The notes: generated by a model not told the origin, from the letters alone. A stretch of DNA of 64,000 nt from Vicugna vicugna (GCA_013265495.1 MU057776.1:124001-188000), one strand, 5' to 3'. Positions 1 through 38,175 are shown, counted from the first letter of the stretch. Translations and numbers: made by a program.

Positions 1-140
1 ACGCCTGGGCGTGCGCTCGCCCACACGCACACACACGCACGCACACACAGAACTATATGCACAAGGCCTCCCACAGCCCACGTGCCGTCTGGGCAGGGGC
101 CTCGCCGGGCTCACGCTCCTTCCCCCAGGCACCCTCCCAC

Positions 141-326
141 CTTCACAGAGTAGGCGAATGCCACGAAGCCCAGGCAGCACACGTTCAGGAAGAGGGTGTT
201 GAACAGGGACCAGACGATGTGGTCGGGCACGGAGGTCTCCGTGGGGATCTGGATCATGGTGGACATCACGGGGGCTGGGTTCTGGGGAACCCCCAGCACC
301 CCGACCTCATGCTCCTCCTTGTACAT
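141..326 (-). CDS. IFITM1: IFITM1-like paralogue A, coding exon 1 (62 codons); intron and exon 2 run off the left edge
   Basis: [23 protein letters not shown]...[30 protein letters not shown] is a CD225 domain start. It ends at the conserved AAG|GT donor (141/140). No IFITM3-type YEML extension. Exact IFITM1/2/3 orthology cannot be resolved. Confidence 0.93.
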
Positions 327-453
327 GTTGGCGTTGGGGAAAGCAGATGCTGCTCGCAGAGGGAACGAAGGAGACGGTGTTTCTCGAGGCTGAGTTGGAG
401 CAGTTGTGCTCTCTGGCCAGCCTAGTGCAGAGTGGGCCCTCCCCTTCTGGTTT

Positions 454-483
454 GGTTTCTATTTCTCGGTAGTTTCTATTTCC
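454..483 (-). promoter_or_regulatory. Tandem ISREs of gene A
   Basis: On the - strand, GGAAATAGAAACT (471-483) matches the classic IFITM1 ISRE; a second AGAAATAGAAACC lies at 454-466. About 130-160 nt upstream of the ATG. Confidence 0.9.
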
Positions 484-714
484 TGTTGTTTCTGAACTGC
501 TGAATTGTCTGGAAAATAGGAGGGTTGGACAACTAACTGGGTGCCTGGTAGGATTTTATGAGCCCTGTCCTTCCAAGGCGGGGCTGCTTTCCTCGAGGTC
601 CCGCTGGCAGCCTTCCTGGCTAGATGGAGGCCTGGTTTCCAGGCTGTCTGGGGAGAACACTTGAGCTAATTACCCATGAGATTATGATACAGGACTTTCT
701 TTTTCTTATTTTCT

Positions 715-1250
715 TTAATTTGGGTAAAATATATACAACATAAAATTTACCGTCTTTTTTTTATTTGAGTAAAGGTAGATTTGTTTGGAGAAATACCCAG
801 TGCGCAGCGGGCAGGCTGTTTCAGGAGGCGAGAGAAAGGCCACGAGTTGCTGCAGTTGGGAGCCCAGGTTAGAGTAAAAGTAGATGCACACTCCACAGAC
901 AGAGTGCGGGCCGTCTCTGAAGAGGAGGGGGCAGAAAGGGCCGCCAAAATTTACCACCCTAATCCCACCTCGGTGCAGAGCTCGGGACACTAAACTCACT
1001 CACATGGTTGAGCAGCCATCACACCATCACCTCCAGGACTCGTCCGACTTCCCAGACTGACACCCTGTCCCCAGTGAACACTCAGCCTCCAGCCCCTGGC
1101 CCCGGGATCGGCTTCCTGACTCTGTGACTGTGACTCCCCCAGGGGCCTCACCGCACAGGAGTGGAATCAGAGCGTTTGTCCTCCTGTGTCTTCTTATGTC
1201 ACCAAGTGTAACGTCCTCAGGGTTCGTCCACATTGTAGCATGAACTGAAG
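715..1250 (-). mobile_element. Old L1M 3' UTR fragments
   Basis: Motifs 'atatacaacataaaatttacc', 'cagccatcacaccatcacctccag' and 'ggttcgtccacattgtagcatg' resemble old L1 3' ends. Confidence 0.6.
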
Positions 1251-1999
1251 GACGAATGACATACACTTGTCTTATTTTAACGACCAGTAGAAGCCTCTTC
1301 TCTGGCCGCTTTGCCAGGCTTCCCGGTGGCTTCCGTTCCCAGCGGTGGTGTGTCTGTGCAGCAGGCTTTCCGGGGAGGAGCCTCCTGTCTGGGGGGAGAA
1401 AGGAACTGTGGGCCTGGGGTGCGGGGGCTTGGTCTGCTCTTTAGGGGCCAGAGCAGCAAACTGGGAGTGCTGAGGGCACAGGCGGCAGAAGTGTCTGAGA
1501 GCAGGAGCTGCGTCAGAGGCCCGTCCCTTGGCATCAGCGATGCCTGCCTTGGGTGCGTGGCACAGAGACCCCCGGATGAACTCTCGCCCAGCAGGGACGG
1601 GGAGGCAGGCTAGAAGCTGGCCCGGGAGCTCGGGGTCGTCCCGAGCTAGGCGCCTCCTCTCCTCCTGCCCGCTGCCCGGAGAGAGGGATTTCTGTCCTTC
1701 CTGGACCTCCAGGCCCTGTGTCCACATCCACGCAGCACAAAGCGAGAGGCAGGCCAAGAGCCGAGGGTGTGCTGACTTGGTTCTGTTCTCCACCGGGAGC
1801 ATCATGGTTCCTGTGGGCTCATGCAGCCGGCTTCCTCTTCCCTCCCATTGGCCGAGGCTGTTTCCCACGGTCACCGCCTGGGAAGTCAAGGTTTAGAGGA
1901 AGGCACGTGACTAACCCACCCAAAGTGGGTGCTGTGGGTGAGGGAGGAGGGCAGAACGGGTCTTGGGGTGACATCTGGCAGGGCCCACCACCCCGGGGC

Positions 2000-2240
2000 T
2001 TACTCTCCCTCTGCTCTGGCCCCTCTGCTGGCCCCTCGTCCCGTTAAGGGTTAGTGTCCTTTCAGTACCATCGTCTGAACCAGACTCAAGGTCTGAACCT
2101 GAAGTGTGAAGGTGTAGCTTCTCTAATTAGTCTGAGAAGGAGGACTATCGGTTGTTGGAGACATGGGGCCGACCATCCTCATGTGTGTCCCTGCAGCCTC
2201 GCCGTGAATGTGCACTGGGAACGATCCCCCAAGACACAGG
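2000..2240 (-). pseudogene. Orphan IFITM intron remnant
   Basis: Collinear with gene D intron ~37290-37550 (shared 'cttctctaattagtctgagaagga', 'cactgggaa..at..cccaagacaca'). No flanking exons found. Confidence 0.65.
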
Positions 2241-2299
2241 ATCCGTGGCTCCCTATTTGAGTGGAAAACCCTAGTCCCCTGAACTTGCCTCAAGACATA

Positions 2300-3900
2300 C
2301 GTGGGAACTGTAAGTGGCAGCGCACAGGTTCCTACTCACATGGAGCCCGTGGTCTGCAGTCCTCATTTGTGGACGTCTGCTGGCCAGTCCTTCCCCACCC
2401 TCACACTCCACATTAGAAACTCTTGGTGTTTACCAGCCAGAGTGGGATTGGGTCTGTCTTAAAAACCAAACTGGGTCTAGAAATGAACTAGGTCCAATTT
2501 ACGCTGGCCTGGGTCCAGTGCCAGGCCTTGGGGGAGTAAAACCTTATGTGCAGACTGAGAGCTAGTAGGAATCCGCAAGTGAAAAAGAAGCCCCATAACC
2601 TGGTAGGAACAGGTTGGCCTCCTAACCTGAGGACTCCCGTGTTGGGATACGTTGGCCGTGGGATGGGTTATACTGACTCTGCGTCACCCACCAATCTCAA
2701 GGAAATTTTGGAGCAGTGAGAGGCACAGTGAGTCTGGCAGAACCTCTACCTAGCAGCACAGCCCTCGAGGAGTCCGTCTGGCTCCCAGGGTACCAAAGGC
2801 TCAGCTAAAAGAAAGCAGCTCGCCACCCCCTGGCATGACTGGCCAGTTTGTATCTGGGAGCCGTGGCCCCAGGAGCTGCAGAGGTTACAAAGCTGGCAAG
2901 GTCTCACCACAACCACCCAGAGTCACAGTGCCGCACATGAGGAATGTTGTAAATAGGTGTGCTCATTTAAGGAGTGGACTTGAAAGCAAAGTTTCCCAAA
3001 TCAAAGAAAGCAAACGGGATACCGATTTTTATTGGTATGTGGAAGCTTCCAAAAGGCTTCAAAATCCCAAAATACCTCCATTTAAAAATTAGTTACAAAA
3101 GGCTAATGAAACTGTAAAGACACAAGGTCATAATGAAAAGTCCACCAAACTATTAGCTTTGTAGCTAATGCAGCTCCGAGGCCCAGCATCTAAAATAAGA
3201 CCCCCGCGTCAGACTCTTCTAGGGACCTCATTAAAGCCTGGCCCACCGAGCCATGTCACCATTGGAATCAACTGGGACCCTGGAAAGAAGATGGTCCTCA
3301 AAGGGAATCTTTCAACATCAACCCAAATGCCTTCATATCTACCCCCAAAGGAGACCCCCAGTTCTCCTCCCAGAACTGATGGGACTCCGAGGGGTCTCTG
3401 GTAAACCGTTGTGTTATTCCCTTATACAGCCAAGGAAGCTAACAATAAAGTCAATGGAAAACTGGAGCCTGCAGAGAGGATCTTGGGAGAGCTGACAGAA
3501 GCCAGAGAGAGCTGAGAACTCTTACCGGAGTCAGCTGTCCCAAATCTCTGTCTATAGTGCCCAGCTGAGAGGGAAAATAAAACTTCACGTTGTTGCTTCC
3601 TTTCCAAACCAAACCCACTGGTTACTTATCCTTTCTCTACCAAGGAGAGCTACTGTCTTTTTTCTTGTCTCGTTTTGTGCCCTAAGACCACGGCTTGGTG
3701 TTCTGCCTGCCTGAGACATGCAGGCTGTCAGCTCCCTTGGGCTGTCTTTGAGGGTGACTCTGGATCTGGGGAAGGGAGTGACCTTTACACCTCTTTGAGG
3801 ACGCCACTTGTGTCCATGGACTTGTTTAATACTGTCAGAAATAGTTACTGTTTGTCCTGGCTGAAACCTGACAAGATATTTAAAAAGATTTAGTAACTCT
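2300..3900 (+). mobile_element. Deleted ERV internal fragment (leader/gag)
   Basis: 2620-3200 is recognisably homologous to the leader/gag of the provirus at ~51000-52240 (-), e.g. 'gctcatttaaggagtggacttgaaagcaaagtttcccaaatc' vs 'gttcatttcagaggtgcacttcagagtgaaggctcccaaatc'. Confidence 0.7.
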
Positions 3901-3901
3901 T

Positions 3902-4033: not shown

Positions 4034-7000
4034 GTCAATTTCTGGCGTACAACGTAATGTTTCAGTCACACATATACATACATATATTCCTTTTCATATT
4101 CTTTTTCATTACAGGCCAATGTAAGATATTGAATAAATTTCTCTGTGCCACACAGAAGAAATTTGTTTGCTGTATATCTGTTTTATATATAGTAGTCAGT
4201 ATCTGCCAATCTCAAACTCCCAATTTATCCCTTCCCACCACCTTTACCCACTGGTAATCGTAAGTTTATTCTCTATGTCTGTGAGTCTGTTTCTGTTTTG
4301 CAAATAAGTTCATTTGTGTCTTCTTTCTTTTTAAAGATTCCACATATAAGTGATATCATATGGTATTTTTCTTTCTCTTTCTGGCTTACTTCTCTTAGAA
4401 TGACGATCTCCAGGTCCATCCTTGTTGCTGCAGATGGCACTCTTTCATTCGTTTTTATGGCTGAGTAGTATTCCATTGCATAAAGATATTCACATCTTCT
4501 TTATCCAGTCATCTGTCGATGGACATTTAGGCTGTTTCCATGTCTTGGCTATGGTAAATGGTGCTGCTGTGAATATTGGGGTGCACGTGTCTTTTTGAAT
4601 TATGGTTCCCTCTGGATATACGCCCAGGAGTGGGATTGCTGGGTCATAGGGTAAGTCTATTTTCAGTCTGTTGAGGAATCTCCACACTGTTTTCCATAAC
4701 AGCCGCACCAAACTGCATTCCCACAACAGTGCAGCAGGTTCCCTTTTCTCACGGCCTCTCCAGCATTTATCATTCACGGGCTTTGGAATGATGGGCATCC
4801 TGACTGGTGTGAGGTGGTACCGCATTGTAGTTTGGATTTGCATTACTCTAATGATTAGCAACACTGAGCATTTTTTCATGAGCCTGTTGGCCATTTGTAT
4901 GTCTTCACTGGGGAATTGCTTGTTTAGGTCTTCTGCCCATTTTTGGATTGGCTTGTTTGTTTTTTGGTTATTAAGTTGTATGATCTGTTTGTATGTTCTG
5001 GAAATTGAGCCCTTGTCAGTTGCGTCGTACGAAAATACGTTCTCCCATTCCGTAGGCTGTCTTTTCGTTTTGTTTTTAGTTTCCTTTGCTGTGCAAAAGC
5101 TTATAAGCTTAATTGGGTCCTATCTGTTTATTCTTGCTTTTATTTCTATTGCCTGGGTAGATGGCCCGAGGAGAACACTGCTGAGATCTGTGTCAGAGAA
5201 TGTTTTGCTGTGCTTTCTTCTGGGAGGTTTACAGTGTCTTGTCTTACGTTTAAGTCTTCAAGCCATTTTGAGTTTATTTTTGTGTATGGCGTGAGGGAGC
5301 GTTCTCACTTCATTGATTTACAAGTGGCTGTCCAGCTTTCCCAACGCCATTTGCTGAAGAGACTGTCTTTTCTGCACTGTATCTTCTTGTCTTCTTTGTC
5401 AAAGATTAGTTGACTGTGGGCGTGAGGGTTTGTCTCTGGGCTCTCTGATCTGTTCCATTGATCTGTGTGTCTGTTTTTGTGCCAATACCACACTCTTTTG
5501 ATTACTGTAGCTCTGTAGTATTGTCTGAAGTCTGGGAGGATTATTCCTCCAGCTTTGTTCTTTCTCTTCAATATTACTTTGACAATTCTGGGTCTTTAGT
5601 GATTTCATATAAATTTTAGGATTATTTGTTCTGGTTCTGTGAAAAATGTCCTGAATAATTTGATAGGGATCACATTACATCTGTAGATTGCTTTGGGTTG
5701 TTTTGCCATTTTAAACAATACTAATTCTTCCAACCCAAGAACATGGGATATCTTTCCACTTCTTTACGTCATATTTAATTTTCTTAGTCAATGTTTTGTA
5801 GTTCTCTGTGTGTAAGTCTTTACTTCCTTGGTCAGATTTATTCCTAAGTATTTTATTGTTTTGGATGCACTTTCAAAAAAGGGATTGTGTTTTTACTTTC
5901 CTTTTCTGATATTTCCTTGTTGGTGTAAAGAAATGCAACAGATTTCTGTATGTTAATCTTATATCCTGCTACATTGCCAAATGCTTTTACCAGCTCTAGT
6001 AGTTTTTGTGTGGAGCAATTAGGGTTTTCTATATATAGTATCAAGTCATCTGCATATAATGACAATTTTACCTCTTCTCTTCCAATTTGGGTCCCTTTCA
6101 TTTCTTTTTCTTGTCTAATTGCCATGGCTGGGATTTCCAAGACTATGTTGAATTGAAGTGGTGAGAGTGGGCGTCCATGTGTTGTTCTAGATTTTAGCAG
6201 GAAGGCTTTCAACTTTTCACCATTGAATAGTGTGCTGGCTGTAGGTTTGTCCTAAATAGCTTTTATTATGCTGAGATGGGTCGTTGGCGTCATAATATCA
6301 ATGTACACACACACCCCGTATGTGGAGAGAGCTGATGGCTAATCTAAAAGTTTATTAAACTACACAGGCTTATAAAGCAAAAGAGAACAATATGGAAAAT
6401 GTTTAACTATGGTTTGACATTTTATGACTCCCTAGACACACAGATTGTTTTAAGGTCAGGATCTTAAGATCCTTTGATATTTTTGATAGATTACACTCGT
6501 CATGGAGCCAGTGAGCCTTAAATCTTATCAGGGCGGAACATATAGGAAAATAGCTGCTTGACGACATTCTTTCTGACTCAGGCGGCTGTGCCTGTCTTAG
6601 GTTGCCCCCCGCTGGGGATCTTACCCGTCATTGGCTAACCAGCCTTCTCACCTCAGAGTCTGCAGCCTTTTATAACTTGTTTACCACTCCAGCCCAAGGC
6701 TCATTCCTTTGTTCACATGATCGGGGGGCTACATATGTTCCCTCAGTATAGAGTTACTTTGGTTAGAGTTTTTATCATAAGTCGGTGTTGAATTTTATCA
6801 AATGTTTTTTGTGCATCTATTGATATGATCAAGTGATTTTTGTCATTTCTTTTGTTGATGTGGTGTATCACATTGATTTATGTGTGTTGTACCATCCTTG
6901 TGTGCCTGGAATGAACCCAACTTGATCATGGTGTAGAATCTTTTTTATTTGTTGTTGGATTCTGTTTGCTAATATGTTTTGAGGATTTTTGCATCTTTGT

Positions 7001-11460: not shown

Positions 11461-11464
11461 TCCA

Positions 11465-14900: not shown

Positions 14901-14912
14901 GACGTCTGCAGG

Positions 14913-19545: not shown

Positions 19546-21548
19546 CAGACAGAAGTTTATCTCATGGAAGTGAGGTGGGGAATCAGTCAAACATAAAATC
19601 GCTGGGGGGACAGAGAAGGGTCTTCTAAAGACAGAGAGTTTTGTTGTGACTTTCGCTGTGGTGGATGGATTGAGTTGAGTGATTTTTTCCTTTGTCCCAT
19701 CTGTCACCGTTGCACAGATCAGCTACTCCTAAGTCAACAGGAAAACCACACGACGGGAAGAATTCCTGTGGTGTCTCCAGATGGGAAAGCAGTGGGCACC
19801 CAGGACGCGGCATCTGAGGAGCGGCTGCATTAGGGGAGCAGCTCGGTCCCGACTGGGGCGGGGCAGCAGGGGCCGCTGACCCCAAGAGCCTCGGACAGGA
19901 CTGGCGGGGCCTGGGGGAGACCAAGGGGCAAGCCTGGGAGGGACCAGGTGCCACGACAACCCCTGCTCTCACCCCTGCCCCGTCTGCGCACCCAGGACTG
20001 AGGACCGGGGCAGCACTCGTGGGGACGGGGCGTCCCGGCAGCACGCCCAGTCAGGCTGGACTTGGTGCGGAAAGGGCTTGTGCTGTGGACTAGCACACAG
20101 TGGCCTCCATCAGTGGTGAGGGAAATGAGGGCCAACATTTGAACTGCTCCAACCTTGAAGGCAGTGGGGTGCTTCAGCCACCCTCCTGGTGGGATCTGAT
20201 CCCAGTGGGAAGGAGGACCCGCCGGGATCACAGTCCACGAGGGATGGAGCAGCGGTACCTCGGAGGGAGGGAGGGAAGGCCTGGGCTTCTGTTGCTCCCC
20301 GACACTCCTGCCCACGTGTGGAGCTCAGGGCATCCTGGCTGTGTGTTCTCGGGGAGTAGGTGGGGACTCATATTGCCAAATTTGGGGGTGCTTCCCATTC
20401 TGTCTGGGCCTTGTGTGTGGTGAGGCCTTTCAGATGGCTGCTCTCTGGCTCTTGGAACCTCCCTGCTCGACCAGTTCTGCCTCACCTACGCACTCACCCC
20501 ACTGACCTCCCCTCTGAGTCACAGATCCCAATCAGTAAATGCCTGCCCACCCCCGGCCCCGGCTGGTGGCTGCTCTGACCTGCAGATCAGAACTATCTCC
20601 TCGTGATGGTTTATCAAAGGGGCGGTGGGGGCACGCCCCTCTGCTGGCGTCCCTGGTCACCGGTCAGCCAGCCTGACCTCTCAGCCCTGTAACTGGTAAC
20701 CTCTTCCCCACCGCCCGGCCCCGTAGTGACCACTGACACGTCCCGACCGCCGTCTGCCGCACACGGTGGGGTGTCGCTCCAGGGCCTTGCCTCAGACACA
20801 CAAGATCCCTGTCTGTTAAACCGCCGATGATTCTGTCGCTGACTCCGGGCTCTTCCTTCCGTCCTGAGGCGGCCCTGCGGGGCGCGGCCCCGCACCTTGT
20901 CGTGAAGCTGGCGCCTGGCCTCCTCTCCTCCTGAGCTCTGGCTGAGCTGATGTGACCAGACACCACGGGGCCTGGGTGTGAACTTGCTCTTCTCCCTGGG
21001 GCTCCAGCACCAGCAGCCAAGCGCCCCCTGTGGTCCTGAGTGGAGGTGGAGACCTCAGGCTGGCACTGGGGAGCACGCAGCCCAGACGCCCCAGCTCTGC
21101 TGGGCTCGGCTGAGCGGCCACGCGGGGCAGTCAGGGCCCAGAGGGCGGAAGGCAGACCTAGTGCGGTCGGTTTCTGCCGACCCTCCCGCTGGCTGTCCTC
21201 CCAGGTGCACCCAAAGTCTGGAAAATTAGCTAAAAGGAAAAGACACTTAGCTGTATACTTTAATAAGTTTAAAATGGTAAATTTTATGTTACATACACTT
21301 TACCACATTAAAAAAATTTTAAGTTGATTCTAGCACCTTTGACAGTTTATTCATTGATTTTGTGGGGGGAGACTTTCAGAGCCCTTTTACCTGTGTGATT
21401 TAATTGTAACGACAGCTGCGCTTCACAACGGGCATCAAAACTCCTTGGATCTTGAGGGTCAGCCCCTAAAAGGTGGTGTGTCCGCAGCAGGACTTCTGCC
21501 TGGAAAGTGCATTTTACTCAAAGAGCAGCACGTGAAGATCTTTGTGTT

Positions 21549-22196
21549 CCCCGCAGCCCGGGCGGGAGCAGGGCACAGGCACTGGGAAGCCCCGGTGGTG
21601 ACTCGGGGTCAGGACAGCCTTGCCTGTTTGACCTGGGATGTTCCACTTCCATCCTCAAAGGCCCAGCTGCTCGGGGCACCCCAGCCTCCCTCTGGGTGGG
21701 CCTGACACAACCCTCCTGTGGCAGACAGTTCCGCCGCCAGCTCCCCAGGCAGCCCGTGTCCAGCGTTAGAGGTAGGCAGGAAAGACCACCTCCACCAGAT
21801 CCCTGTCCACACGCCCAGCCCCGGGGCCGGGCTGGTGTCCGTCTGGCACAGCAGCTGCGCTTGGACTCCCACGGGCTGATCGGCCGCCATCCACCGCGCC
21901 CGACAGGACTGTCTGGGTCTGGGCTCAGACTGGTCAGTGACATGGAGGAGTGTGTCGGGGGCACCCCGCTCCCACTGGGCTTTGAGGTGGCGCGATTGCT
22001 GCTCCCTCCCAGGGTGGGATATGGTTCTGGTATTTCCCCTGCTAGGGTGGGTGTTGGGGCGCAATTCCAGACGTCCCCACCAGCCAGCCCCACGACCCTG
22101 GCTCTCACCCAGAAGCCACGGGCCCAGGGTGCGGACGTGCAGACCTCCCCGGACGTGTCCTCCCGTCCCACCCCCGCAGTGGAGATGCCAGCTGGA
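21549..22196 (+). repeat. 648-bp direct duplication, copy 1
   Basis: Near-identical to 34398-35045. Confidence 0.95.
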
Positions 22197-25650: not shown

Positions 25651-26825
25651 AATTTGATGTGATTAAAAATTACATCATATAACCTATGAATTAAATAAAG
25701 TATAACAACCCAAAGTCATCACTACCCAAAACACAGCTGTGGCAATTAAATTCCCCACGGCCCATGGTCACCTCTGCACTGGAGGCCTCTTCTGTCCGCT
25801 GGGTCCGCCACCTGGTGGAAGGCTGCCCAGGGCAGAGCTACGGCCCCGCACCGGCCACAAACACGGATGTCGCGCTGCTGGAGGGAACAGCCTCGGCTGG
25901 AGCATCATCCCAGACGCAGGCAGGGGCAGCGCNNNNNNNNNNNNNNNNNNNNNNNNNNNNNNNNNNNNNNNNNNNNNNNNNNNNNNNNNNNNNNNNNNNN
26001 NNNNNNNNNNNNNNNNNNNNNNNNNNNNNNNNNNNNNNNNNNNNNNNNNNNNNNNNNNNNNNNNNNNNNNNNNNNNNNNNNNNNNNNNNNNNNNNNNNNN
26101 NNNNNNNNNNNNNNNNNNNNNNNNNNNNNNNNNNNNNNNNNNNNNNNNNNNNNNNNNNNNNNNNNNNNNNNNNNNNNNNNNNNNNNNNNNNNNNNNNNNN
26201 NNNNNNNNNNNNNNNNNNNNNNNNNNNNNNNNNNNNNNNNNNNNNNNNNNNNNNNNNNNNNNNNNNNNNNNNNNNNNNNNNNNNNNNNNNNNNNNNNNNN
26301 NNNNNNNNNNNNNNNNNNNNNNNNNNNNNNNNNNNNNNNNNNNNNNNNNNNNNNNNNNNNNNNNNNNNNNNNNNNNNNNNNNNNNNNNNNNNNNNNNNNN
26401 NNNNNNNNNNNNNNNNNNNNNNNNNNNNNNNNNNNNNNNNNNNNNNNNNNNNNNNNNNNNNNNNNNNNNNNNNNNNNNNNNNNNNNNNNNNNNNNNNNNN
26501 NNNNNNNNNNNNNNNNNNNNNNNNNNNNNNNNNNNNNNNNNNNNNNNNNNNNNNNNNNNNNNNNNNNNNNNNNNNNNNNNNNNNNNNNNNNNNNNNNNNN
26601 NNNNNNNNNNNNNNNNNNNNNNNNNNNNNNNNNNNNNNNNNNNNNNNNNNNNNNNNNNNNNNNNNNNNNNNNNNNNNNNNNNNNNNNNNNNNGCGGCTCC
26701 CTCTGGGGGCTGGGGTGTGGGGGCTGTGAGGGGCTGGCAGGGCCCTGCGTGGGGGCAGGGAGGGCCTGCAGCAGGCTTGAGTCCCCAGACCCCCAGGCTG
26801 GGGAGGAGCCCCCAGGGCCTGACCA

Positions 26826-26843
26826 CACCCCTATATAGGGGTG
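26826..26843. promoter_or_regulatory. 18-bp palindrome CACCCCTATATAGGGGTG containing a CArG box and TATA-like core, upstream of B
   Basis: CCTATATAGG fits CC(A/T)6GG. Mirrored at 32650-32667 for gene C. Confidence 0.55.
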
Positions 26844-27121
26844 GGGGCAGGTGAGCAGGACCTGTAGCTCCTTCAGAGCCCTCAGGCTCCCTCCCCACTT
26901 CCCTAGTGTAACTTGACACTCAGTGGTTCAACGGGCCTCCTATGACCAGCCCATTTCCAATTCCCCAAAGACCAGGAAGAGGAAATTTCAGAGGATTCAA
27001 AACATCTGGGGAAACGGAGCGTCCCTTGAGCACCGTCCAGGCGTCGGACCACAGCTGCTCACTCCGCTGCTCAGGAAACCCACTTCTGAGACACCAGCAC
27101 CTGCTTCTCTCAACTCCTGAG

Positions 27122-27307
27122 ATGCTCAAAGAGGAGAAGCACGTGGGGGTGCTGGGAGCTCCCAATTACCCGGCACCCGTGCCCCCCACCGTGATCAACA
27201 TCCGCAGTGAGACCTCCGTGCCCGACCACATCGTCTGGTCCCTGTTCAACAGCCTCTTCCTGAACGTGTGCTGCCTGGGCTTCGTGGCATTCGCCTACTC
27301 TGTGAAG
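27122..27307 (+). CDS. IFITM1: IFITM1-like paralogue B, exon 1
   Basis: [19 protein letters not shown]...[35 protein letters not shown] donor; 478-nt intron 27308-27785. Confidence 0.95.
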
Positions 27308-27785
27308 GTGGGAGGGTGCCTGGGGGAAGGAGCGTGAGCCCGGCAAGGCCCCTGCCCAGACGGCACGTGGGCTGTGGGAGGCCTTGTGCATATAGTTCTG
27401 TGTGTGCGTGCGTGTGTGTGCGTGTGGGCGAGCGCACGCCCAGGCGTGCAGGTCGTGATGAGGTTGCAGGGGTGCGTGGGGATGACCAGCGTCAGCCTTT
27501 TGCCCCGTGGTGGGGCGGGCGGCCAGTAGGAGGCCAGAGCAGAGGGACGGTGAGCCCTGGGGCCTCCTGGACAGGCTGAGAGTCTGTGAGGAGGGAGATC
27601 CAGGCCCCAGGAGGGGAGGGAGGGCCCGCTGGGCACGGTCGTGCTCAGGCTGTGGGGGGACGGGCAGGGGTGGGTCCCCAATGGGTGAATGGACACCGGG
27701 GGACCAGCAGGGAGGACCTGAGTCTTGGCACCTGGCCTTCACCCGGCCCGGCCCCAGGTCCCCCTCACCATCTCTCCTCCCCCAG

Positions 27786-27977
27786 TCCAGGGACCGGAAG
27801 ATGGTGGGCGACATCCTTGGGGCCCAGAGCTACGCCTCCACCGCCAAGTGCCTGAACGTCTGCGCCCTGGTGCTGGGCATCCTTCTGACCATCGTGTTCA
27901 TCATTATTTTTGCCACTGGCTCCCTGATGATTTTCCAGGCGATTTCACAGATTGTAAAGGAGTATGGAGGCTACTAG
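27786..27977 (+). CDS. IFITM1: IFITM1-like paralogue B, exon 2 (spliced protein 125 aa)
   Basis: CAG acceptor, then [63 protein letters not shown]. Confidence 0.95.
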
Positions 27978-28033
27978 TAGCTGCCCGCGGCCACCCCTTC
28001 ACAGCAGTTTATACACACCCCCGTCTACAGCTG

Positions 28034-28039
28034 AATAAA
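28034..28039 (+). terminator. Poly(A) signal of gene B
   Basis: AATAAA 56 nt after the stop, followed by GT-rich sequence. Confidence 0.85.
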
Positions 28040-29039
28040 AGCCGGCGTTCCTGTGTGAGGCTGCTGTGTTCTCACCTGGGGAGGGCGCCCTGCTGAGAGC
28101 TCCCGCCTGCCCCTGAGACAGCCCAGCCCCCCTCTCCCTCCTGCTCTGCTGCCCAGGGGCCTGAGCCCCGGCCCCAGACAGGTCCTCTGGGGGCGGGCTG
28201 TGCTCGGTCCAACTCCCTTGCCTGTCGAGAAAAGAAAAACGAGAGAGAGAGAGAGAAAGGCCGCAGAAGCCTGCAAAAGAGAGAAAAGAGAGAAAAGGCT
28301 CTTTTGGGGAGCTTTAGGATCTGCAACTGGGAGGCACACATTCGAGTAGCAAGTCAAATGTGCTCCGAGGGAAGTCAACACGGTGGGGGTTACAAAGACA
28401 AAGACATTCCTGAGAAGTTACAGGGCTGTTTCAGAGCTGGGACTGGGGCCAGCAGGCTTTGAGGCTCACGTCGCAGCTGACTGGTTGCTAACGTGAGGTT
28501 TGCAGGGAGTGAAGAAAGTGAGTCCCCGGTGGTCCCAGGGTGTGAGGGTGGGTGTCAGCTCCACGTCCCGTGGGCTCTGGGGCTGTCTGAGACCCTACCA
28601 TGAGGCTGCATTTGGTGGTCCGTAGCCCTCAACCCGGGGTCCCCATCAGTGGGAGGGCTGCAGGAGCCCTTGGTCTACCTGTGGAGGGACGGCCCCGGCG
28701 GTCCCTGCTTTTCAGGCGGAGGAGACCCCCTGCCCTGGAAATCAGCCCCCCGTCCGGTTTTGCCGTGGCCTCCAGACTTGTGGGCACAGGAGTGGCCCCG
28801 GGGCAGACCCTGCCCACAACCAGCTGGGCAGGTGCGGTGTGAGCTGGGGTGGCCATCGCCTGCCCCTTCCTCCCCGCCACCTGACCCCAGCTGTGGGCCC
28901 TCCTGTGAGTGGAAAATATCACCTGCCGTGTCCGTGAGCAAAGGATGTTGCAGCCACCAAGTCCTCAGCCACGGCAGCCACCCGGGACCCTGAGCCCTGA
29001 GGGTCTCAGGCGGGGAGAGCCCAGGACACTGGCCCTAGG

Positions 29040-29320
29040 AGCTCAGCTGCACCTCAAAGGAAGGATTCCAAGGAGCCCAGGCTCTGGCGTCTTCCCAGAC
29101 ACAGAGACACCTGAAATTCCTTACCCTGAGATAGCTGGTCTTATTAACAGTACTCTTTTGATGTGCCGACCGCCTGGGGTCTTACCAAGCTCCTGCGTAT
29201 CCTGGCTCCTCCCCGCTCTCGGGGCAGCCCTTCAGAGCCATCTGCCTCCCGGCTTGAAGTCCTCAGAGAGCCCACCAGATAAAACATAATTTTAACTCTC
29301 AGGCCGTGCAGTTCTTCAGT
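29040..29320 (+). mobile_element. LTR fragment
   Basis: Reverse-complement homologue of 14940-15210. Confidence 0.7.
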
Positions 29321-29899
29321 CCGTGAGCCCCAGCCCTCACCCGCACCCCTTTTCTGTTCCCGGCAGCAGAACCTGAGTCCAGGAAATGGGGTGTTGGCGT
29401 CCCAGGGCGGGCCATGGAGAAGCCCCCTCCCCCGGGCGATCTGACTCCTGTCAGCAGGCGTGGGGACAGAGCCCGGGAAGGTTGGCCCTGGAGGAGGGAC
29501 GGCAAGCCGACCTGGCGCTCTGGGTTGGGAAGGACCGACCCCAAGGGGGGAAGGGGCCAACAGCCAGCAAAGCATTGGAGTCTGGAGCAGGCGCTGCCCA
29601 GCGGCACGGACCCTGCTGGGGTGGGCTGGGCAGATGGAATCTTCCGGACCAGCAGTGCCTGGCAAGGGAGCCGGCGGTGCGCGGCCAGAAGCAGCCCTCT
29701 GTCCCCCCAGGAGCACAGGTGTCCTGTTCCGCCCTCGTGCCCCCTCAGCAGGAGTCGTGAGGTGCGGCTTCCTCCAGGCAAAGCAGAAGAGCATTCTCTC
29801 CCCAGGGCTATTCGGAAAGTGTCCAGAAATGCCTCTGACGCTGCTGCCGCCCACCTGTGCGCCCGGTCCTGGCTCTGTGTCCTCCTGGCCCACCATCCC

Positions 29900-30010
29900 A
29901 ACCCCTCCATGCCCTCCTCTCCCCCTCCGCGCCCTCCTCCGCCGCCTCCTTGCCCTCCTCTCCCCCTCCGCGCCCTCCTCCCCCACCTCCGCGCCCTCCT
30001 CCTCCCACTT
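29900..30010 (+). repeat. C-rich low-complexity tandem repeat
   Basis: Repeated 'ccctcctctccccctccgcgccctcctcc'. Confidence 0.8.
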
Positions 30011-31214
30011 CACTGTTCTCCCAGCTCTGGGCCCTCCAACGTTCAGTGCTCCCAGCTCGCCCATTTCTCTCAGCCCCGCATAGATCGTCCACCTCACCAG
30101 GCAGCGCTCACCTGCAGGTGACACAGGACACTGTAACTGCCCACGTCAGAACAGAGCTGGTGGTGTGGCTCCAAGGGTTAGAGCTGCTCAGGACCCAGCG
30201 GTCAGCACCCAGGACCTTGGAACGGACCTACAGTTCCCCTGCGCGAGGCCTGGGACCTCACCTGCTTATTTTGGAAAGCTCCAGATCCCTAGTTCTTTGC
30301 TAGCTGCCAAGAGAGGGGGTCTTCCACCTGGCAGGAGCCTAATCCTGAGTCAGTGGAGCGCAGGTGGGGTTGGGCTCAATGCCCATCGCCCTTCTGGACG
30401 GCTGCCCAGCAGGGGAATGTGGGACCCGCCTAGTCTGCCCTGTTGGGGCTGGGGTCAGGGTCATGCGTTCTGGCCCCCAGCCCCACCTTGGAGAAAGTCC
30501 TTTTGGACCTAGAGGGGCAGGTCTGCCAGCCTCCCCTCCTCCAGGACCCACCTTCCCTGGGCTGAGCCTCCCGTGATGAAGTGGGACCCGAGAGAGAGTG
30601 GGCAGCCTCTTCTGAGACACCGTCCACCAGTGAGGACCCCAAGCAGCGTGGCCTCGGAGTTAGGCCACTGCGGGGGGTGGGCGCCCTTCCCTCCTGGGTG
30701 CCTGGACTCAAGGGAACCCAGCGTGAAGAGCTGAGACTTCAGCGAGAGCCAACAGGACTTGGCCTCAGCTGACTGAGCGTGCCCAGGGGCAGGTGGAGAA
30801 GGGGTCACCTTCTCGACACAAGGCGAGGCTGCCTGGGCTCCTCCTGCCTCCCCAGGGTGACGCCCAGCACACTCGGGGTAGCGTGCAGGGCACGGTGGTC
30901 TGTGGCAGGGTGCCCCTTCCCCACCCACCAACTCCCTCTGGGGCCTCAGAGATGGGAGCACAGGTCTGGGGCCTTTCTCCCGCATTGGGCTGAGGACGGT
31001 CCCCACCTCTCTGGGTGCAGCCCAGGCTCTGGCAAAGGTTCACACCCAACACCCCAGGGTCCCCAGTTTCTGGGAGACCCTTCCCGGGACACCGAGCAGT
31101 CGCTCAGCCAGCAGGGCCAGGCGGGTTTGGTGGGAGGAAGTGGTCTTTCCTCTGGGGGTTTCTGTTCATCCAGGTGAATCACCGGCTCTGCTATCTGCTT
31201 CTGCAGTCAGGCCA

Positions 31215-31373
31215 CTGGGGACTCCCAGCCGTGCCCCCTCCCCAGGGACTTCACTGCACCCTCACATCTGGGGACTCCCAGCCGTGCCCCCTCCCCAGGG
31301 ACTTCACTGCACCCTCACATCTGGGGACTCCCAGCTGTGCCCCCTTCCCAGGGACTTCACTGCACCCTCACGT
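31215..31373 (+). repeat. 53-bp tandem repeat, 3 copies, at the 3' end of gene C
   Basis: Units start at 31215, 31268 and 31321. Confidence 0.92.
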
Positions 31374-31383
31374 ACAAGTGCAC

Positions 31384-31389
31384 TTTATT
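31384..31389 (-). terminator. Poly(A) signal of gene C
   Basis: TTTATT on +, i.e. AATAAA on -. Confidence 0.85.
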
Positions 31390-31519
31390 CGATTCAGTTG
31401 TCATCAGGTGTGTGTATAAACTGCTGTGTAAAGGGGTGTGGGGAGAGCAGGCTCCCAGCCCCAGGGGCAGGGACAGCAGTGGATGGTGGAAGACCTGGGC
31501 TGCCTTCCATTGGTAGCTC

Positions 31520-31711
31520 TTAGTAGCCTCTATTCTTCTTCATAAACTCTGACGTGATATGGTTGGCCATAGGGTATAAAAATACCAGAAGAACGATGAC
31601 TCCAATGGTCCCGAGGATGCCCAGCACCAGGGCACAGACGTTCAGGCACTTGGCAGTGGCGGCATGGCTCTGGGCCCCAAGGACGTCGCCCACCATCTTC
31701 CGGTCCCTGGA
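31520..31711 (-). CDS. IFITM1: IFITM1-like paralogue C, exon 2 (spliced protein 125 aa)
   Basis: [68 protein letters not shown]1-type RGY end; CAG acceptor. Confidence 0.95.
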
Positions 31712-32185
31712 CTGGGGGAGAGATGGTGAGGGGGACCTGGGGCCGGGCCGGGTGAAGGCCAGGTGCCAAGACTCAGGTCCTCCCTGCTGTCCCCCGGTGT
31801 CCATTCACCCACTGGGGACCCACCCCTGCCCGTCCCCCCACAGCCTGAGCACGACCGTGCCCAGCGGGCCCTCCCTCCCCTCCTGGGGCCTGGATCTCCC
31901 TCCTCACAGACTCTCAGCCTGTCCAGGAGGCCCCAGGGCTCACCGTCCCTCTGCTCTGGCCTCCTACTGGCCGCCCGCCCCACCACGGGGCAAAAGGCTG
32001 ACGCTGGTCATCCCCACGCACCCCTGCAACCTCATCACGACCTGCACGCCTGGGCGTGCGCTCGCCCACACGCACACACACGCACGCACACACAGAACTA
32101 TATGCACAAGGCCTCCCACAGCCCACGTGCCGTCTGGGCAGGGGCCTCGCCGGGCTCACGCTCCTTCCCCCAGGCACCCTCCCAC

Positions 32186-32371
32186 CTTCACAGAGTAGGC
32201 GAATGCCACGAAGCCCAGGCAGCACACGTTCAGGAAGAGGCTGTTGAACAGGGACCAGACGATGTGGTCGGGCACGGAGGTCTCACTGCGGATGTTGATC
32301 ACGGTGGGGGGCACGGGTGCCGGGTAATTGGGAGCTCCCAGCACCCCCACGTGCTTCTCCTCTTTGAGCAT
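32186..32371 (-). CDS. IFITM1: IFITM1-like paralogue C, exon 1
   Basis: Same translation as B exon 1; 474-nt intron 31712-32185. Confidence 0.95.
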
Positions 32372-34397
32372 CTCAGGAGTTGAGAGAAGCAGGTGCTGGT
32401 GTCTCAGAAGTGGGTTTCCTGAGCAGCGGAGTGAGCAGCTGTGGTCCGACGCCTGGACGGTGCTCAAGGGACGCTCCGTTTCCCCAGATGTTTTGAATCC
32501 TCTGAAATTTCCTCTTCCTGGTCTTTGGGGAATTGGAAATGGGCTGGTCATAGGAGGCCCGTTGAACCACTGAGTGTCAAGTTACACTAGGGAAGTGGGG
32601 AGGGAGCCTGAGGGCTCTGAAGGAGCTACAGGTCCTGCTCAGCTGCCCCCACCCCTATATAGGGGTGTGGTCAGGCCCTGGGGGCTCCTCCCCAGCCTGG
32701 GGGTCTGGGGACTCAAGCCTGCTGCAGGCCCTCCCTGCCCCCACGCAGGGCCCTGCCAGCCCCTCACAGCCCCCACACCCCAGCCCCCAGAGGGAGCCGC
32801 ACCCCAGAGCCCGCACCGCAGCTGCACACCCTCCCCTTGACGCGCACTGTGCCGTCCCGGTTCTGAGTCCGAGCTCCAGGCGGGCTTGGGGGCCTGCCTG
32901 GCTGCAGGCGGGCACCCAGAAGCCCGTGTTGCCTGCCCCGGGGGAGCCTCCCATGATCTCCCAAGGGCTCCCACGAGCAGGACACTGGGAGCTGCTGACC
33001 CGAGGAGGCAGCCGTGCTGGGAGCCCTTTGGCAGCAGCTTCGGGGCCCAGGGCCTGCGTGCTTGTGCGGCCCACCTCCGCTGCCTCCCTCCTTCCCGCCA
33101 CCCCTGGCATTTCACGCAGGAACTGGGTGTTGGTGGGACAGCTCCTTGGCTGTGGGCCCTATGCCCCCTTCTCAGGGATGGACGGGGTCAGCTCAGCTCA
33201 GGCCAGGACTCAGCTCTCCAGAAACTAACGGATGGCAGCGTCCTGGGTGCCGCCTGCGTCCTTACCACCTGGGTGGAGGAGCGGGTGGGATGCGATGGTC
33301 CAGGCCGGACTGTCCTGCTAGGACCTACGGGCCTCACCCAAGCTGGGTCCAGTGGGCTCAGGGTGGCCAGTGGCCCCCATACCCGCCCAGAAGGCGGGCC
33401 TCTGGCCCTGGGGCCTCCTCCAGCTGTCCAGGTCCTGACCACTTCCGCCGCTGCCCTGGGCTCCCTCACAGGCGTCAGCTGCCCCGCCCTGAGCACCTCT
33501 GGGCCCACGGACCCAGGCGTTCTCTGTGACCCGCTCCTCGTTTCAAGTCCTCCTCATCTTGAGACACCTGGTGTGGCCTGTTCTCCTGCTGGGCCACACC
33601 GACCCAGAAGGCCGCCCTGATCGCCTGGGCGGAGGTGCACGCGTGGGCAGTCTGAGGCCTGGGCCTGGCCCCTGGTCTGGGGTGAGGTCGGCGGGGGTGG
33701 GGCGGTCGCCCGCAGGCCCTGACGCGCTGCCCCTGCCTGCGTCTGGGATGATGCTCCAGCCGAGGCTGTTCCCTCCAGCAGCGCGACATCCGTGTTTGTG
33801 GCCGGTGCGGGGCCGTAGCTCTGCCCTGGGCAGCCTTCCACCAGGTGGCGGACCCAGCGGACAGAAGAGGCCTCCAGTGCAGAGGTGACCATGGGCCGTG
33901 GGGAATTTAATCGCCACAGCTGTGCTTTGGGAAATGCTGACTTTTCTCCTACATAATTGATATGATTCATAGTTTAGCCGATTTAATTTTCAGTATGGCT
34001 GTGCTTCGAATCAGCTCACAACATTGCCGTAAGTGGGCACCTGTGCCCAAAACCTGGATTTTATCCTGAAAGTAGGGTGTTCATGTCTCACCCTTCCTTC
34101 CTGGTCCCCTGCCTCCATCCCAGCCCCTGGTCCTCACCTCCCACCTTCTCCCATCAGCTCCTGGAAGGTGGCCACAACCTTTGTCCCCTCTGTTCTGTTA
34201 GCGTCCAGTTCTCCCCACAGAGCGAGTGGCCGGTGTCCCGCTCCGGGTCTGCCCACGGGAACCCTCCCCTCCGGGTGTTCAGGCCACCCTTCATGAGCTG
34301 GGGCGCCAGCCCCATCTGTGTCCAGCTCTCTCCCTCACTCTGGCAAAACCAAGCTGGGAATTCTTCCCATCCTTCCCATCTTCTGGTCCCCAGGGTC

Positions 34398-35045
34398 CCC
34401 CGCAGCCCGGGCGGGAGCAGGGCACAGGCACTGGGAAGCCCCGGTGGTGACTCAGGGTCAGGACAGCCTTGCCTGTTTGACCTGGGATGTTCCACTTCCA
34501 TCCTCAAAGGCCCAGCTGCTCGGGGCACCCCAGCCTCCCTCTGGGTGGGCCTGACACAACCCTCCTGTGGCAGACAGTTCCGCCGCCAGCTCCCCAGGCA
34601 GCCCGTGTCCAGCGTTAGAGGTAGGCAGGAAAGACCACCTCCACCAGATCCCTGTCCACACGCCCAGCCCCGGGGCCGGGCTGGTGTCCGTCTGGCACAG
34701 CAGCTGCGCTTGGACTCCCACGGGCTGATCGGCCGCCATCCACCGCGCCCGACAGGACTGTCTGGGTCTGGGCTCAGACTGGTCAGTGACATGGAGGAGT
34801 GTGTCGGGGGCACCCCGCTCCCACTGGGCTTTGAGGTGGCGCGATTGCTGCTCCCTCCCAGGGTGGGATATGGTTCTGGTATTTCCCCTGCTAGGGTGGG
34901 TGTTGGGGCGCAATTCCAGACGTCCCCACCAGCCAGCCCCACGACCCTGGCTCTCACCCAGAAGCCACGGGCCCAGGGTGCGGACGTGCAGACCTCCCCG
35001 GACGTGTCCTCCCGTCCCACCCCCGCAGTGGAGATGCCAGCTGGA
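34398..35045 (+). repeat. 648-bp direct duplication, copy 2
   Basis: Near-identical to 21549-22196. Confidence 0.95.
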
Positions 35046-36778
35046 TGGGGACGGGCCCCACGGAGAGCCTGATTAAAGCCTGGAGGCCCCTGATTCTTTG
35101 GACCCAGGTGCCTCACACGAAAGGGGGCCACACTGTGTTGTGGAGACACCGACCCAGGCCCCGAGCCCAGCTCTTCCTAAGACATCAGGAAACCCACAGC
35201 CATGACCCCATTTCCCGGGACCTGCCACACGCTCCCTTGGAGACAGCTCGAGGGATGTGCCCTCTCCTGCCCCCGAGGGGATCAGGTCCAAAGACCAGCT
35301 CAAAACAGAGGCAAGGTCTTGAGCTGACAAGAGATTTGCCCCACATCCTGGTCTGCCGTTGTTGCTTCCTTGGCTGCTGGAAGCCGAGGGCACCCTGGTG
35401 CCCGTCCTCCTGCTGTGCCCCGAGGGACACGTCCGTGACTGTGTCCAGAACTCTCTGCCGTGGGCCCATGGAAGATGGCGACCCCAGCCCCCACCTCCAA
35501 CAACTCGTCTGCTTCCCAGCGTCCGCCTGGGTGCAGGGGAGGCCGCCCCCAACCTCTGGGTTGGCACAGGCATTTGGTGGGTTTCCCAGCGTCACGCGCT
35601 CTGTCCTTGGAGTCGGGAAGGAAAGCCCAGCTGGAGGGTGAGGTGGGCGGTCACCCCAAGGGGCTCCAGGAAAGGTGGGCATGTGCAGCCCGTGGAGGTG
35701 GGTATGAGACCACGCACAGGAGGCCCAGGCTGTGGAAGAGCTGGAAGGAGAGTCTGTGGGGTCCAGACCCCGGCCCTTCCTGAGTGCTGCCCGCCCCCCC
35801 TCCCCACCAGCCGGGGTCACCATCACACGTGGCGCCCCCTCCCCTAGCCGGGGTCCCAGCTGTCCCCCGGCCCCTCCCTGCCTCGGAGTCCTTCCCAGAC
35901 CCAGCGTGGCGGTTCCACCAGGCTCCGCTCTTCCAGGACCCACTCTCCCTGGGGCTGTGCCCCCTCGAACTCACACACCTGGGACGCCTGGGGGGCGGGT
36001 ACTCCCCATGGCCCACCCTGGCACCCCTACCCAGCAGCCACTTCTGAGGGTTGGGGGATGCAGGGCCGAGTGAGGAGAGTGACGGGTGAGCTCAAGACGG
36101 ACGGGGTGGGGAAAGGGCCAGGTGCACCTCAGCGCCCCCCACAGTCCAGCTGGTTGTGGGCAGTCTGCCCTGGGGCACCCCAAGTGCCCACTCGTCCTGG
36201 GCAGGGAGGGAACCAGGAAGGCAGCTGATCTCCTGGTCAGGGCAGTTCTGCAGGAAGTTAGCCAGGACCAGACTGCCTGGCGCTGAGGATGGGTCCTGCT
36301 CGCTCCTCCAGCTGCCTGTCCTTCCCTCCACCCTTCCGGAGGAGCCGGGACCGAGCCTGCGGGCTGGAGGAGCAGCAGCAGGGTGCAGCGGCAGCTGGAC
36401 GTCACCCCGGGCGGGAGACAGGTACACCTACAGGTACAAAAGCCAGTCGTCTTCCCAGAGGGTCTGAGCTGCCCGCAGCCCCCCTGCACCGCTGCTCCCA
36501 GCAGCTGAGAGTCAGGGAGGCTACCCTAAGAGCCAAGGGTGTTCTGGACACAGAGTGCCCTTCCTTGGGAAAGGAGAGACCCCTCTCCTAGGACCCTGTC
36601 CCAGCCGTTGCTCCTAGCAGGGGGCCAGAAACCAGCGGAGTCTGGTGATGCGCCCTCCCACCTCCAAACAGAGCAGCAGATGGGCAAGGGAGGGGAGACT
36701 AAGCCTCAGGGGCAGTCTGGGGACGCCTAGCAGGGCCCCTCCCCAGGGACATCACAGCACCGCCACGTACAAGTGCAC

Positions 36779-36784
36779 TTTACT
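36779..36784 (-). terminator. Variant poly(A) signal AGTAAA of gene D
   Basis: Positionally homologous to the AATAAA of C ('gtgcactttact' vs 'gtgcactttatt'). Confidence 0.65.
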
Positions 36785-36891
36785 GAATCCAGTTGTCTTC
36801 GGGGATGGGGGAGACAGGGCCCACCGCCCCAGGGGCAGGACTTGGGCCGTGGCCATGGCCCACTAGTGGTGGCCTCCCTGTTGCCTTAAAT

Positions 36892-37056
36892 CTAAATATA
36901 CACTCTGAAACTGAACCATAAGCGAGTGGAGAGAAAAACGATGACTCCAATGGTCCCGAGGATGCTCAGCATCAGGGCCCAGACGTTCAGGCACTTGGCA
37001 GTGGCGGCATGGCTCTGGGCCCCAAAGACGTCGCCCACCATCTTCCGGTCCCTGGA
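36892..37056 (-). CDS. Divergent IFITM paralogue D, exon 2 (114 aa total; tail probably frameshifted; possible pseudogene)
   Basis: [54 protein letters not shown]. The ancestral-looking end ...QQGGHH* (stop at 36863) is in another frame. Confidence 0.8.
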
Positions 37057-37544
37057 CTGGGGGAGGAGAGATGGTGAGGGGGACCTGGGGCCGGGCCGGG
37101 TGAAGGCCAGGTGCCAAGACTCAGGTCCTCCCTGCTGGTCCCCCGGTGTCCATTCACCCATTGGCGACCCACCCCTGCCCGTCCCCCCACAGCCTGAGCA
37201 CGACCGTGCCCGGCGGGCCCTCCCTCCCCTCCTGGGGCCTGGATCTCCCTCCTCACAGACTCTCAGCCTGTCCAGGAGACCCCAGGGCTCACCCTCCCTC
37301 TGCTCTGGCCCCTTCCCTGGCCAATCACCCCACCAGGGGTCAGCATACTTATAGTCAGTGCCTGTTCTCTCTCCTAGACCAGACTGGAGGTCTGAGTCTG
37401 AACCATGAGGGTGTGGCTTCTCTAATTAGTCTGAGAAGGAGAACTTCGCGGGTGGTGGAGACAGAGCACCTACGCCCCGACCCCCGCTCTCCTGCTGGGC
37501 ATACCTGCAGCCCCATCGTGACCGCTCACTGGGAATGATACCCC

Positions 37545-37636
37545 AAGACACACCCCCACACACACACACACACACACGCACCCACACACACCCACACACG
37601 CTGACACACACACACACACACACGCGGACACACACA
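37545..37636 (+). repeat. Imperfect (CA)n microsatellite in the D intron
   Basis: Seen directly; shorter versions occur in the A, B and C introns. Confidence 0.9.
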
Positions 37637-37713
37637 AGGCCTCCCACAGCCCACGTGCCGTCTGGGCAGGGGCCTCTCCGGGCTCACGCTCTTTCCCCCA
37701 GGCACCCTCCTAC

Positions 37714-37893
37714 CTTCACGGAGTAGGCAAATGCCGCGAAGCCCAGGCAGAACCAGTTCATGAAGAGGGTGTTGAACAGGGACCAGATGACGTAGTCTCG
37801 TCCAGGGGTCTCCGTCTGCATGCTGATCACGGTGCTCGTCATGGGGGCTGAGCCTTGGGGCGCCCCCATCTCGACCTCCTTCTCCGTGTACAT
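37714..37893 (-). CDS. Divergent IFITM paralogue D, exon 1 (60 codons)
   Basis: [65 protein letters not shown] donor; 657-nt intron. Confidence 0.88.
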
Positions 37894-38048
37894 GTCTTAG
37901 GGTTGTGGGATGCAGGCTTGGGCGCCAGTGAAGGAGGGCTGGAAAGTGCACTTATAATGCCGAGCCCTGACCATTGTTGGGGTATCCCCGGATGCTGTAG
38001 GGCGGTCCCTCGTAGAGCTCAGCCCCCATCTCAGTCGGAAGTTCTGCT

Positions 38049-38057
38049 TTCTCAGAA
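38049..38057. promoter_or_regulatory. GAS (STAT) motif TTCTCAGAA in the D promoter
   Basis: Fits TTCN3GAA, at the position homologous to the ISRE pair of gene A. Confidence 0.5.
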
Positions 38058-38175
38058 ATTTCCAGTTCCTGTTATTTTGTAAATGGGTGAATTGGCTGTC
38101 CACTCAGGATGGGTGGGGGAGTGCTGCAGTCTAAGCGATGGCTTCCTGTCCCAGGCATTCGAGTCAGGGCCTGTT

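Follow-up and report, generated by a model that had tools for sequence, protein, structure and literature searches.

In the sections of Zhang et al. 2012 available to us (PMC3499546), the mammalian immunity-related IFITM (IR-IFITM) cluster is described as subject to species-specific duplication, with gene conversions identified by GENECONV in dog, cow, horse and others, and the accessible part of a second study (PMC10415907) reports primate IR-IFITM3/IFITM1 chimeras in which the N-terminus of one paralogue stands on the C-terminus of another, reads them as gene conversion and describes concerted evolution. For camels, the available text of Confort et al. 2023 (PMC9965546) describes IFITM-a, -b and -c, each of them active against one virus or more; the long form was located inside the cell and the short forms at the plasma membrane, in line with a long N-terminus with a YxxPhi motif giving an intracellular protein and a short one a surface protein, and the authors warn there that the annotation is unstable. 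Among the matches listed in the literature searched, whose coverage leaves out most subscription papers, we found no analysis of a camelid IFITM locus. Here we analysed a stretch of 64,000 nucleotides from Vicugna vicugna (GCA_013265495.1 MU057776.1:124001-188000; the window), together with 60 kb of its left flank. The original prediction, made from the sequence of the window only, had described it as a camelid IFITM array shaped as a patchwork by gene conversion. The results showed a new camelid instance of the known IFITM conversion, of which the most striking part, the gene pair B-C, is probably an assembly artefact.

The window (positions 1-64,000 = G000:C808:124001-188000; flank coordinates refer to the same contig, C808) contains four two-exon CD225 genes, namely A (minus strand, truncated by the left edge), B (plus), C (minus) and D (minus). 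The left flank adds exon 2 of gene A and another gene, E (plus), which lies 5 kb beyond the edge of the window and brings the number to five; 29-30 kb out it also contains exons which we take from their sequence to be those of IFITM5; a position adjoining IFITM5-like exons is a feature of IR-IFITM clusters. All five genes have two coding exons split within the CD225 domain, with canonical GT-AG sites, and PF04505 (CD225) was matched above the cut-off by 4/4 window exon peptides and 4/4 alpaca full proteins scanned. Gene E has a long IFITM3-type N-terminus with a YEML motif, and A, B, C and D start short. In comparison to the RefSeq Vicugna pacos proteins, 7 of 9 exon peptides were identical to an exon and the other two were one residue off, with exon 1 of D identical too, which bears out the camelid origin. 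The locus is a canonical IR-IFITM cluster of an alpaca-type camelid.

That the paralogues have undergone gene conversion was supported by this assembly as well as by the proteins of other camelid assemblies. Genes E and A differ at 4/474 positions in the intron in comparison to 110/223 in the promoter, 11/69 in early exon 1 and 31/69 in the tail, and the introns of E, A, B and C showed 1-4 differences per 474-478. In a Sawyer-type permutation procedure, the longest identical run was reached in 0/2000 shuffles for both E-A and A-D, and the E-A run covers 82 of 184 polymorphic columns, with partial assembly collapse possible for the intron; the identical runs of E-D and B-D were not significant in the same procedure (p 0.06-0.15). 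Eight RefSeq proteins (four types, alpaca and camel), separate from this assembly, were used for a cross-species test, in which the mean numbers of differences between orthologues and between paralogues were 2.0 and 14.3 for the N-terminus, 3.5 and 3.6 for the exon-2 core, and 4.0 and 14.8 for the tail. The N-terminus tree of camel and alpaca pairs the orthologues, with supports of 95-100 for A, C and D, whereas the core tree does not; the tail tree, poorly supported at its inner nodes, was left out of any dating.

The A proteins of alpaca and camel showed 20 differences, and at 18 of them alpaca A has the residue of one of its own paralogues, with patches that are E-like at columns 65-71, as in D at columns 99 and 101 (SHAAT), and C-like at the tail end (columns 138-144). 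The corresponding numbers of differences shared with an alpaca paralogue were 4/17 for D, 3/5 for C and 1/3 for E, and species-specific states common to paralogues and absent from orthologues were found at columns 93, 99, 101 and 117. Since these 18 of 20 paralogue-matching differences are joined by the E-A and A-D runs, alpaca A is a real mosaic, and conversion among the IFITM paralogues, as judged from the protein comparison, holds independently of this assembly. The N-terminus of D is 78% identical to horse-family proteins, so that old 5' ends are combined with a core that is being renewed. In D (37714-37893) and in camel A the motif reads NWFCLG, in comparison to NVCCLG in E and C, so the first cysteine of the pair is missing. 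This cysteine has a role in palmitoylation. Alpaca A carries the E-type NVCCLG motif, and conversion thus seems to have switched the cysteine motif in one lineage.

The similarity between A and C in the window was found to be one end of a larger shared block. A block of 5,094 bp, consisting of the 3' halves of a convergent gene pair and the spacer between them, is present both at B-C and at E-A, and the two copies differ by 11 single-nucleotide variants (SNVs), 2 one-base insertions or deletions (indels) and 2 one-unit minisatellite differences. The spacer is about 3.5 kb long, with 4 SNVs in 3,542 bp between the twin copies. Minisatellites of about 17, 41 and 53 bp were seen at 25202-25384, 29904-30006 and 31215-31371, the latter two being those that are one unit apart between the twins. 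In composition, gene B consists of the C 5' half and the E 3' half, gene C as assembled consists of the C 5' half and the A 3' half, and every junction of B recurs in C or E. The sharing between A and C noticed earlier was seen again at positions 1-239 and 32046-32284, which differ at 1/239 bases in comparison to 25 of the next 87; it does not stop at the window edge, however, but continues for the 5,094 bp of the block. The common promoter, exon 1 and intron of B and C were likewise found as predicted, with 1 difference in the 429 bp upstream of the ATG, 0/186 in exon 1, and 2/474 plus 2 small indels in the intron, all within a single inverted alignment of 1,216 bp at 98.2%. D-type sequence is indeed present in exon 2 of C, where SHAAT and ILGTIGVIV read as in D and the 5' part of the exon differs at 5/123 bases between C and D, in comparison to 18/123 between B and D. 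The tail of C, which had been called unique, is identical to the tail of A just left of the window (0/69 bases differ), since the A/C match is the right end of the twin block. The D-type sequence is a genuine exchange between A and D, but was observed on C, which is not the gene it belongs to.

Protein searches returned 7 hits among 96 candidates for C exon 2, 86 among 160 for B exon 2 and 23 among 31 for D exon 1, and cluster look-ups were added. Alpaca RefSeq and three camel species show four protein types only (E, A, C and D), each with its own N-terminus and tail. Alpaca, wild camel and dromedary have a C-specific exon 2 with the tail GVGHVAVYQMV..., a tail also carried by a Bactrian model; the tail is conserved from camels to RefSeq alpaca (0/27 differences), and no copy of this exon 2 was found in the present genome among 17 matches examined. 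No B-type protein (C exon 1 with E exon 2) was found among the 6 camelid hits, of 86, to B exon 2 or among their clusters. Hybrid models exist in older camel records: dromedary XP_031303925.1 joined the A start to the E tail and was revised in version.2 to the A start with A's own tail, and a Bactrian "isoform X2" model joins the A start to the C tail. Such models may be real alleles, or they may result from errors in assembly or annotation. For alpaca, RefSeq also lists the identical E protein under two accessions, and consecutive accession numbers indicate the same for a camel.

All three N gaps within 143.5 kb, of which the two in the window had gone unmentioned in the original prediction, carry duplicated sequence at an edge. 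At G000:C808:106585-107841, near-identical duplicates of 446 bp and 128 bp lie on the two sides of a 14-N gap, which again points to artefacts at the gap edges of this scaffold. A 565-bp repeat is present in five copies, upstream of E, B, C and D and after gap 2, three of them at gap edges; in gene E about 1 kb of additional sequence lies between the promoter and the repeat. The original prediction that D borrowed the far-upstream module of C holds insofar as 38170-38734 matches 32654-33218 at 98.9%, but the repeat is not C's own, and the D copy is nearer to that of E (4/565 differences) than to that of C (6/565), so that borrowing from C was rejected, the direction not being readable. A transposon was also considered for this repeat and rejected, with no copy off this contig among 6 matches. 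The copy past gap 2 continues into unique sequence, and the D repeat at this gap may result from gap-filling along the repeat, in which case the true D copy would be about 445 bp.

The explanation which we consider somewhat more probable than not combines conversion of the core with a mis-join of B and of the 3' half of C. Four old gene types, E with a long N-terminus and A, C and D with short ones, each retain the promoter, the N-terminus and, mostly, the tail, while about 0.75 kb, from the end part of exon 1 across the intron to within exon 2, is repeatedly overwritten between neighbours by ectopic gene conversion. The tracts sometimes spill into the tail, and the protein comparison across species shows these exchanges; as to mechanism, the core would be copied by ectopic homologous recombination between neighbours in either orientation at distances of 4-37 kb, with tracts presumably ending where homology drops. 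In a gapped assembly, the near-identity of several core copies makes a wrong exit possible; from the C intron the path probably led to A exon 2, through the E-A spacer to E exon 2 and out via the C 5' end again, which would yield "B" and give C the tail of A. A mis-join is probable since the C-type exon 2 is missing, the B protein is absent, the twins have diverged at the level of alleles (11 SNVs in 5,094 bp, or 0.22%, in comparison to an alpaca heterozygote rate of 0.266% in PMC6389616 Table 4; P=0.30) and duplicates lie at gap edges. In addition, B starts at a gap edge, a simple wrong path through identical cores gives exactly the B-C layout, and the revision of the dromedary model points the same way. 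Several observations weigh against this explanation. An inverted arm with a diverged outer edge lies left of gap 1, and the 760 N of the gap are near the 923 bp between the matching points on the C side, so that a second arm may really exist there and continue into a C-type promoter of B. A separate unique C 3' flank should assemble somewhere, and none was found in the genome among the best candidates scored; the spacer has fewer SNVs than alleles would give (P=0.04); the paired E accessions of alpaca and a camel could be two loci; and the window species, within the llama tribe, may differ from RefSeq alpaca. On the side of conversion, the core-tree supports are low (23-68), the intron identity in this assembly may itself be partly consensus collapse, and the cross-species test relies on RefSeq models which have changed at this locus. 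Of 24 sequencing runs listed, 20 contained part of 27910-37900, 14 of them with 0.87-0.89 of its sequence words; all 20 are stored as contigs and none as raw DNA reads, and they were given no weight as evidence.

An appreciable though lesser possibility is that the second cassette is real. In this case one recent event, a 5-kb duplication or a long conversion from E-A, would have replaced both 3' halves of a pre-existing inverted C-type pair, and the chimeras B (C start with E tail) and C (C start with A tail) would be genuine genes of this animal or species. The arm left of gap 1 with its diverged outer edge and the fitting gap size agree with it, as do the 11 SNVs and 4 indels separating the copies; no stray contig bearing a C-type exon 2, an alternative spacer or a missing arm was found among the best candidates scored in this genome. 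The dromedary IFITM-b, as given in the available part of PMC9965546, has a short N-terminus and 94% homology to the E orthologue; a B-type protein would be expected to give 93.6-94.4%, and the best real record gives 92.0%. However, current camelid records hold no B-type protein, the C tail conserved between camels and RefSeq alpaca would have to be lost, mammalian conversion tracts rarely exceed 1 kb according to the accessible text of PMC3961182, and the divergence fits alleles. Less probable is that the animal is heterozygous for a rearrangement, such as an inversion, between the inverted copies which surround C, and that the haplotypes were merged so that the C 5' end is doubled and faces itself. 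The near-identity of the B and C 5' ends (1/429 differences upstream and 0/186 exon bases) would fit, and the human cluster has an inversion, HsInv0124, with a frequency of 0.39, IFITM1 inside and IFITM2 and IFITM3 at the breakpoints, as described in the sections available of PMC3961182 and PMC6748972; yet the C 3' flank would have to be joined on both sides, which was not found in the assembly, and there is no direct evidence for two orientations. That the core is alike solely through purifying selection on the CD225 domain is highly improbable: the identical coding part does coincide with the Pfam CD225 match, but the introns are as alike as the exons among E, A, B and C, and alpaca-specific residues are common to paralogues at four columns. 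We also consider, tentatively and with some doubt, that convergent pairs with identical cores let crossover or long conversion swap tails, with C+E, A+E and C+A combinations of start and tail segregating as real haplotypes. Swapped tails would then alter protein location and the viruses blocked, and the older dromedary models with a short start and an E tail would be alleles, not errors.

A further claim of the original prediction, namely that promoter, core and tail are shuffled as independent modules, was not upheld. The proximal promoter stays with its own N-terminus in 5/5 genes, each N-terminus groups with its orthologue, and a promoter joined to the N-terminus of another paralogue was seen in 0/5 genes, only the far-upstream 565-bp repeat being common. 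As the N-terminus is always found with its own promoter, no more than two units can be exchanged, the 5' end and the tail, with the switch within the core. The two best examples of a tail swap in the window (B, and exon 2 of C) come from one block that mis-assembly may well remove. With regard to promoter motifs, gene E has one match to the interferon-stimulated response element (ISRE) 82 bp upstream, in addition to the matches to the ISRE and to the gamma-activated sequence (GAS) given in Table 1 for genes A and D. No ISRE or GAS consensus was found within 400 bp of B or C in the C-type promoter (26722-27121, 32372-32771), and by its promoter sequence C may be weakly interferon-responsive.

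Table 1. Features of the IFITM locus, in window coordinates unless a contig position is given
Feature	Position	Strand	Remark
Gene E	G000:C808:118920-119838	+	IFITM3-type, 146 amino acids; equals RefSeq alpaca XP_072826800.1/801.1
IFITM A, 5' part of intron	1..140	-	rest of gene left of window; exon 2 at G000:C808:123475-123666
IFITM A exon 1	141..326	-	short N-terminus, 62 amino acids; equals exon 1 of RefSeq alpaca XP_072826802.1
Two ISRE-consensus matches upstream of A	455..482	-	putative function
651-bp direct copy	21546..22196	+	99.7% to 34395-35045; sharp ends, without flanking homology
Inverted copy of C far-upstream 33724-33990	25666..25932	+	about 190 bp identical beside gap 1, outer ~75 bp diverged
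Assembly gap 1	25933..26692		760 N; abuts 5' end of B
Gene B upstream region	26693..27121	+	inverted C upstream, 1 difference/429; begins at edge of gap 1
Gene B exon 1	27122..27307	+	identical to C exon 1
5,094-bp block	27191..32284		twin of G000:C808:119052-124239; 3' halves of convergent gene pair and spacer
Gene B intron	27308..27785	+	2-3 substitutions in comparison to E, A and C introns
Gene B exon 2	27786..27977	+	equals exon 2 of E, left of window
Exon 2 assembled on C	31520..31711	-	protein differs from RefSeq alpaca A exon 2 at 0/63, from RefSeq alpaca C at 14/63
Gene C intron	31712..32185	-	
IFITM C exon 1	32186..32371	-	equals exon 1 of RefSeq alpaca XP_072826803.1
565-bp upstream repeat, C copy	32654..33218	-	copies found on this contig only
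Partner of inverted copy 25666-25932	33724..33990	-	sequence match
Partner of 651-bp copy	34395..35045	+	only two copies found in genome
IFITM D exon 2	36892..37056	-	54 amino acids, short tail; 1/54 residues off RefSeq alpaca D
Gene D intron	37057..37713	-	longer, middle diverged; last 250 bp near-identical to other introns
IFITM D exon 1	37714..37893	-	100% to RefSeq alpaca XP_072826804.1/805.1; 78% to horse-family proteins
GAS-consensus match upstream of D	38049..38057	-	putative function
565-bp upstream repeat, D copy	38170..38734	-	extends to gap 2, the very point at which the E and C copies diverge
Assembly gap 2	38735..39378		644 N; abuts upstream repeat of D
Repeat copy beyond gap 2	39379..39798	-	98.3% to 38193-38612; probable false tandem duplicate

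Some other features of the locus were also observed. The short tail of D (36892-36800) shows a one-base gap in comparison to the other genes, with a remnant of the old tail end after the stop, and the truncation appears to be old, since camel D has the same length. Positions 1990-2238 upstream of A and 37279-37552 in the additional part of the D intron are 70% similar, probably an old repeat. An intronless retrocopy of E (G000:C9280:5174946-5175400) is 91-93% identical, ends in a poly-A run and resembles alpaca XP_015105235.2. The 651-bp direct duplicate may be a real recent copy or an artefact. A 1.9-kb inverted pair of 95% identity (4034-5938 and G000:C808:103758-105634), presumably LINE-1-like by eye, flanks the E-A block and is a possible substrate for inversion. 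A gene flanking the array on the right was looked for and not found, as 8 long open frames at 48-62 kb of the window gave 1 weak Pfam match below the cut-off, to an integrase zinc-binding domain (48250-48918, E 1.2e-4), likely an old retroelement remnant.

If conversion of the core with a mis-joined B-C pair is the correct explanation, the value of the locus is modest, namely as a camelid example of IFITM conversion and as a warning that gapped assemblies can give rise to falsely chimeric IFITM models in camelids, one of which may be a functionally tested camel IFITM. If instead the second cassette is real, camelids would have a structural polymorphism by which an antiviral protein that blocks entry acquires new combinations of trafficking signal and tail.

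In comparison to known systems, the passages available on the chicken IFITM locus (PMC5450142) share with our case the gaps and errors in a reference assembly, which were fixed there with long reads; they concern a bird and describe no false chimera. Confort et al. 2023 likewise dealt with camelid IFITMs with short or long N-termini, but, in the part of PMC9965546 accessible to us, with three complementary DNA (cDNA) models and no locus analysis. Human HsInv0124 (IFITM2-IFITM1-IFITM3) resembles the present layout in its inverted near-identical IFITM copies within the same cluster; in the available sections of PMC3961182 and PMC6748972 its breakpoint exons are reported as identical and the mRNAs as unchanged, whereas an E/A crossover in a hypothetical camelid inversion would swap tails. 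The clusters of PMC3499546, as far as its text was available, are alike in their position beside IFITM5, their two-exon CD225 genes and their gene conversion, and differ in that its main text does not contain the words camel and alpaca. The primate chimeras, as presented in the accessible part of PMC10415907, combine the ends of different paralogues, whereas in this locus the whole-gene chimeras B and C are doubtful and the firm mosaic lies within alpaca A.

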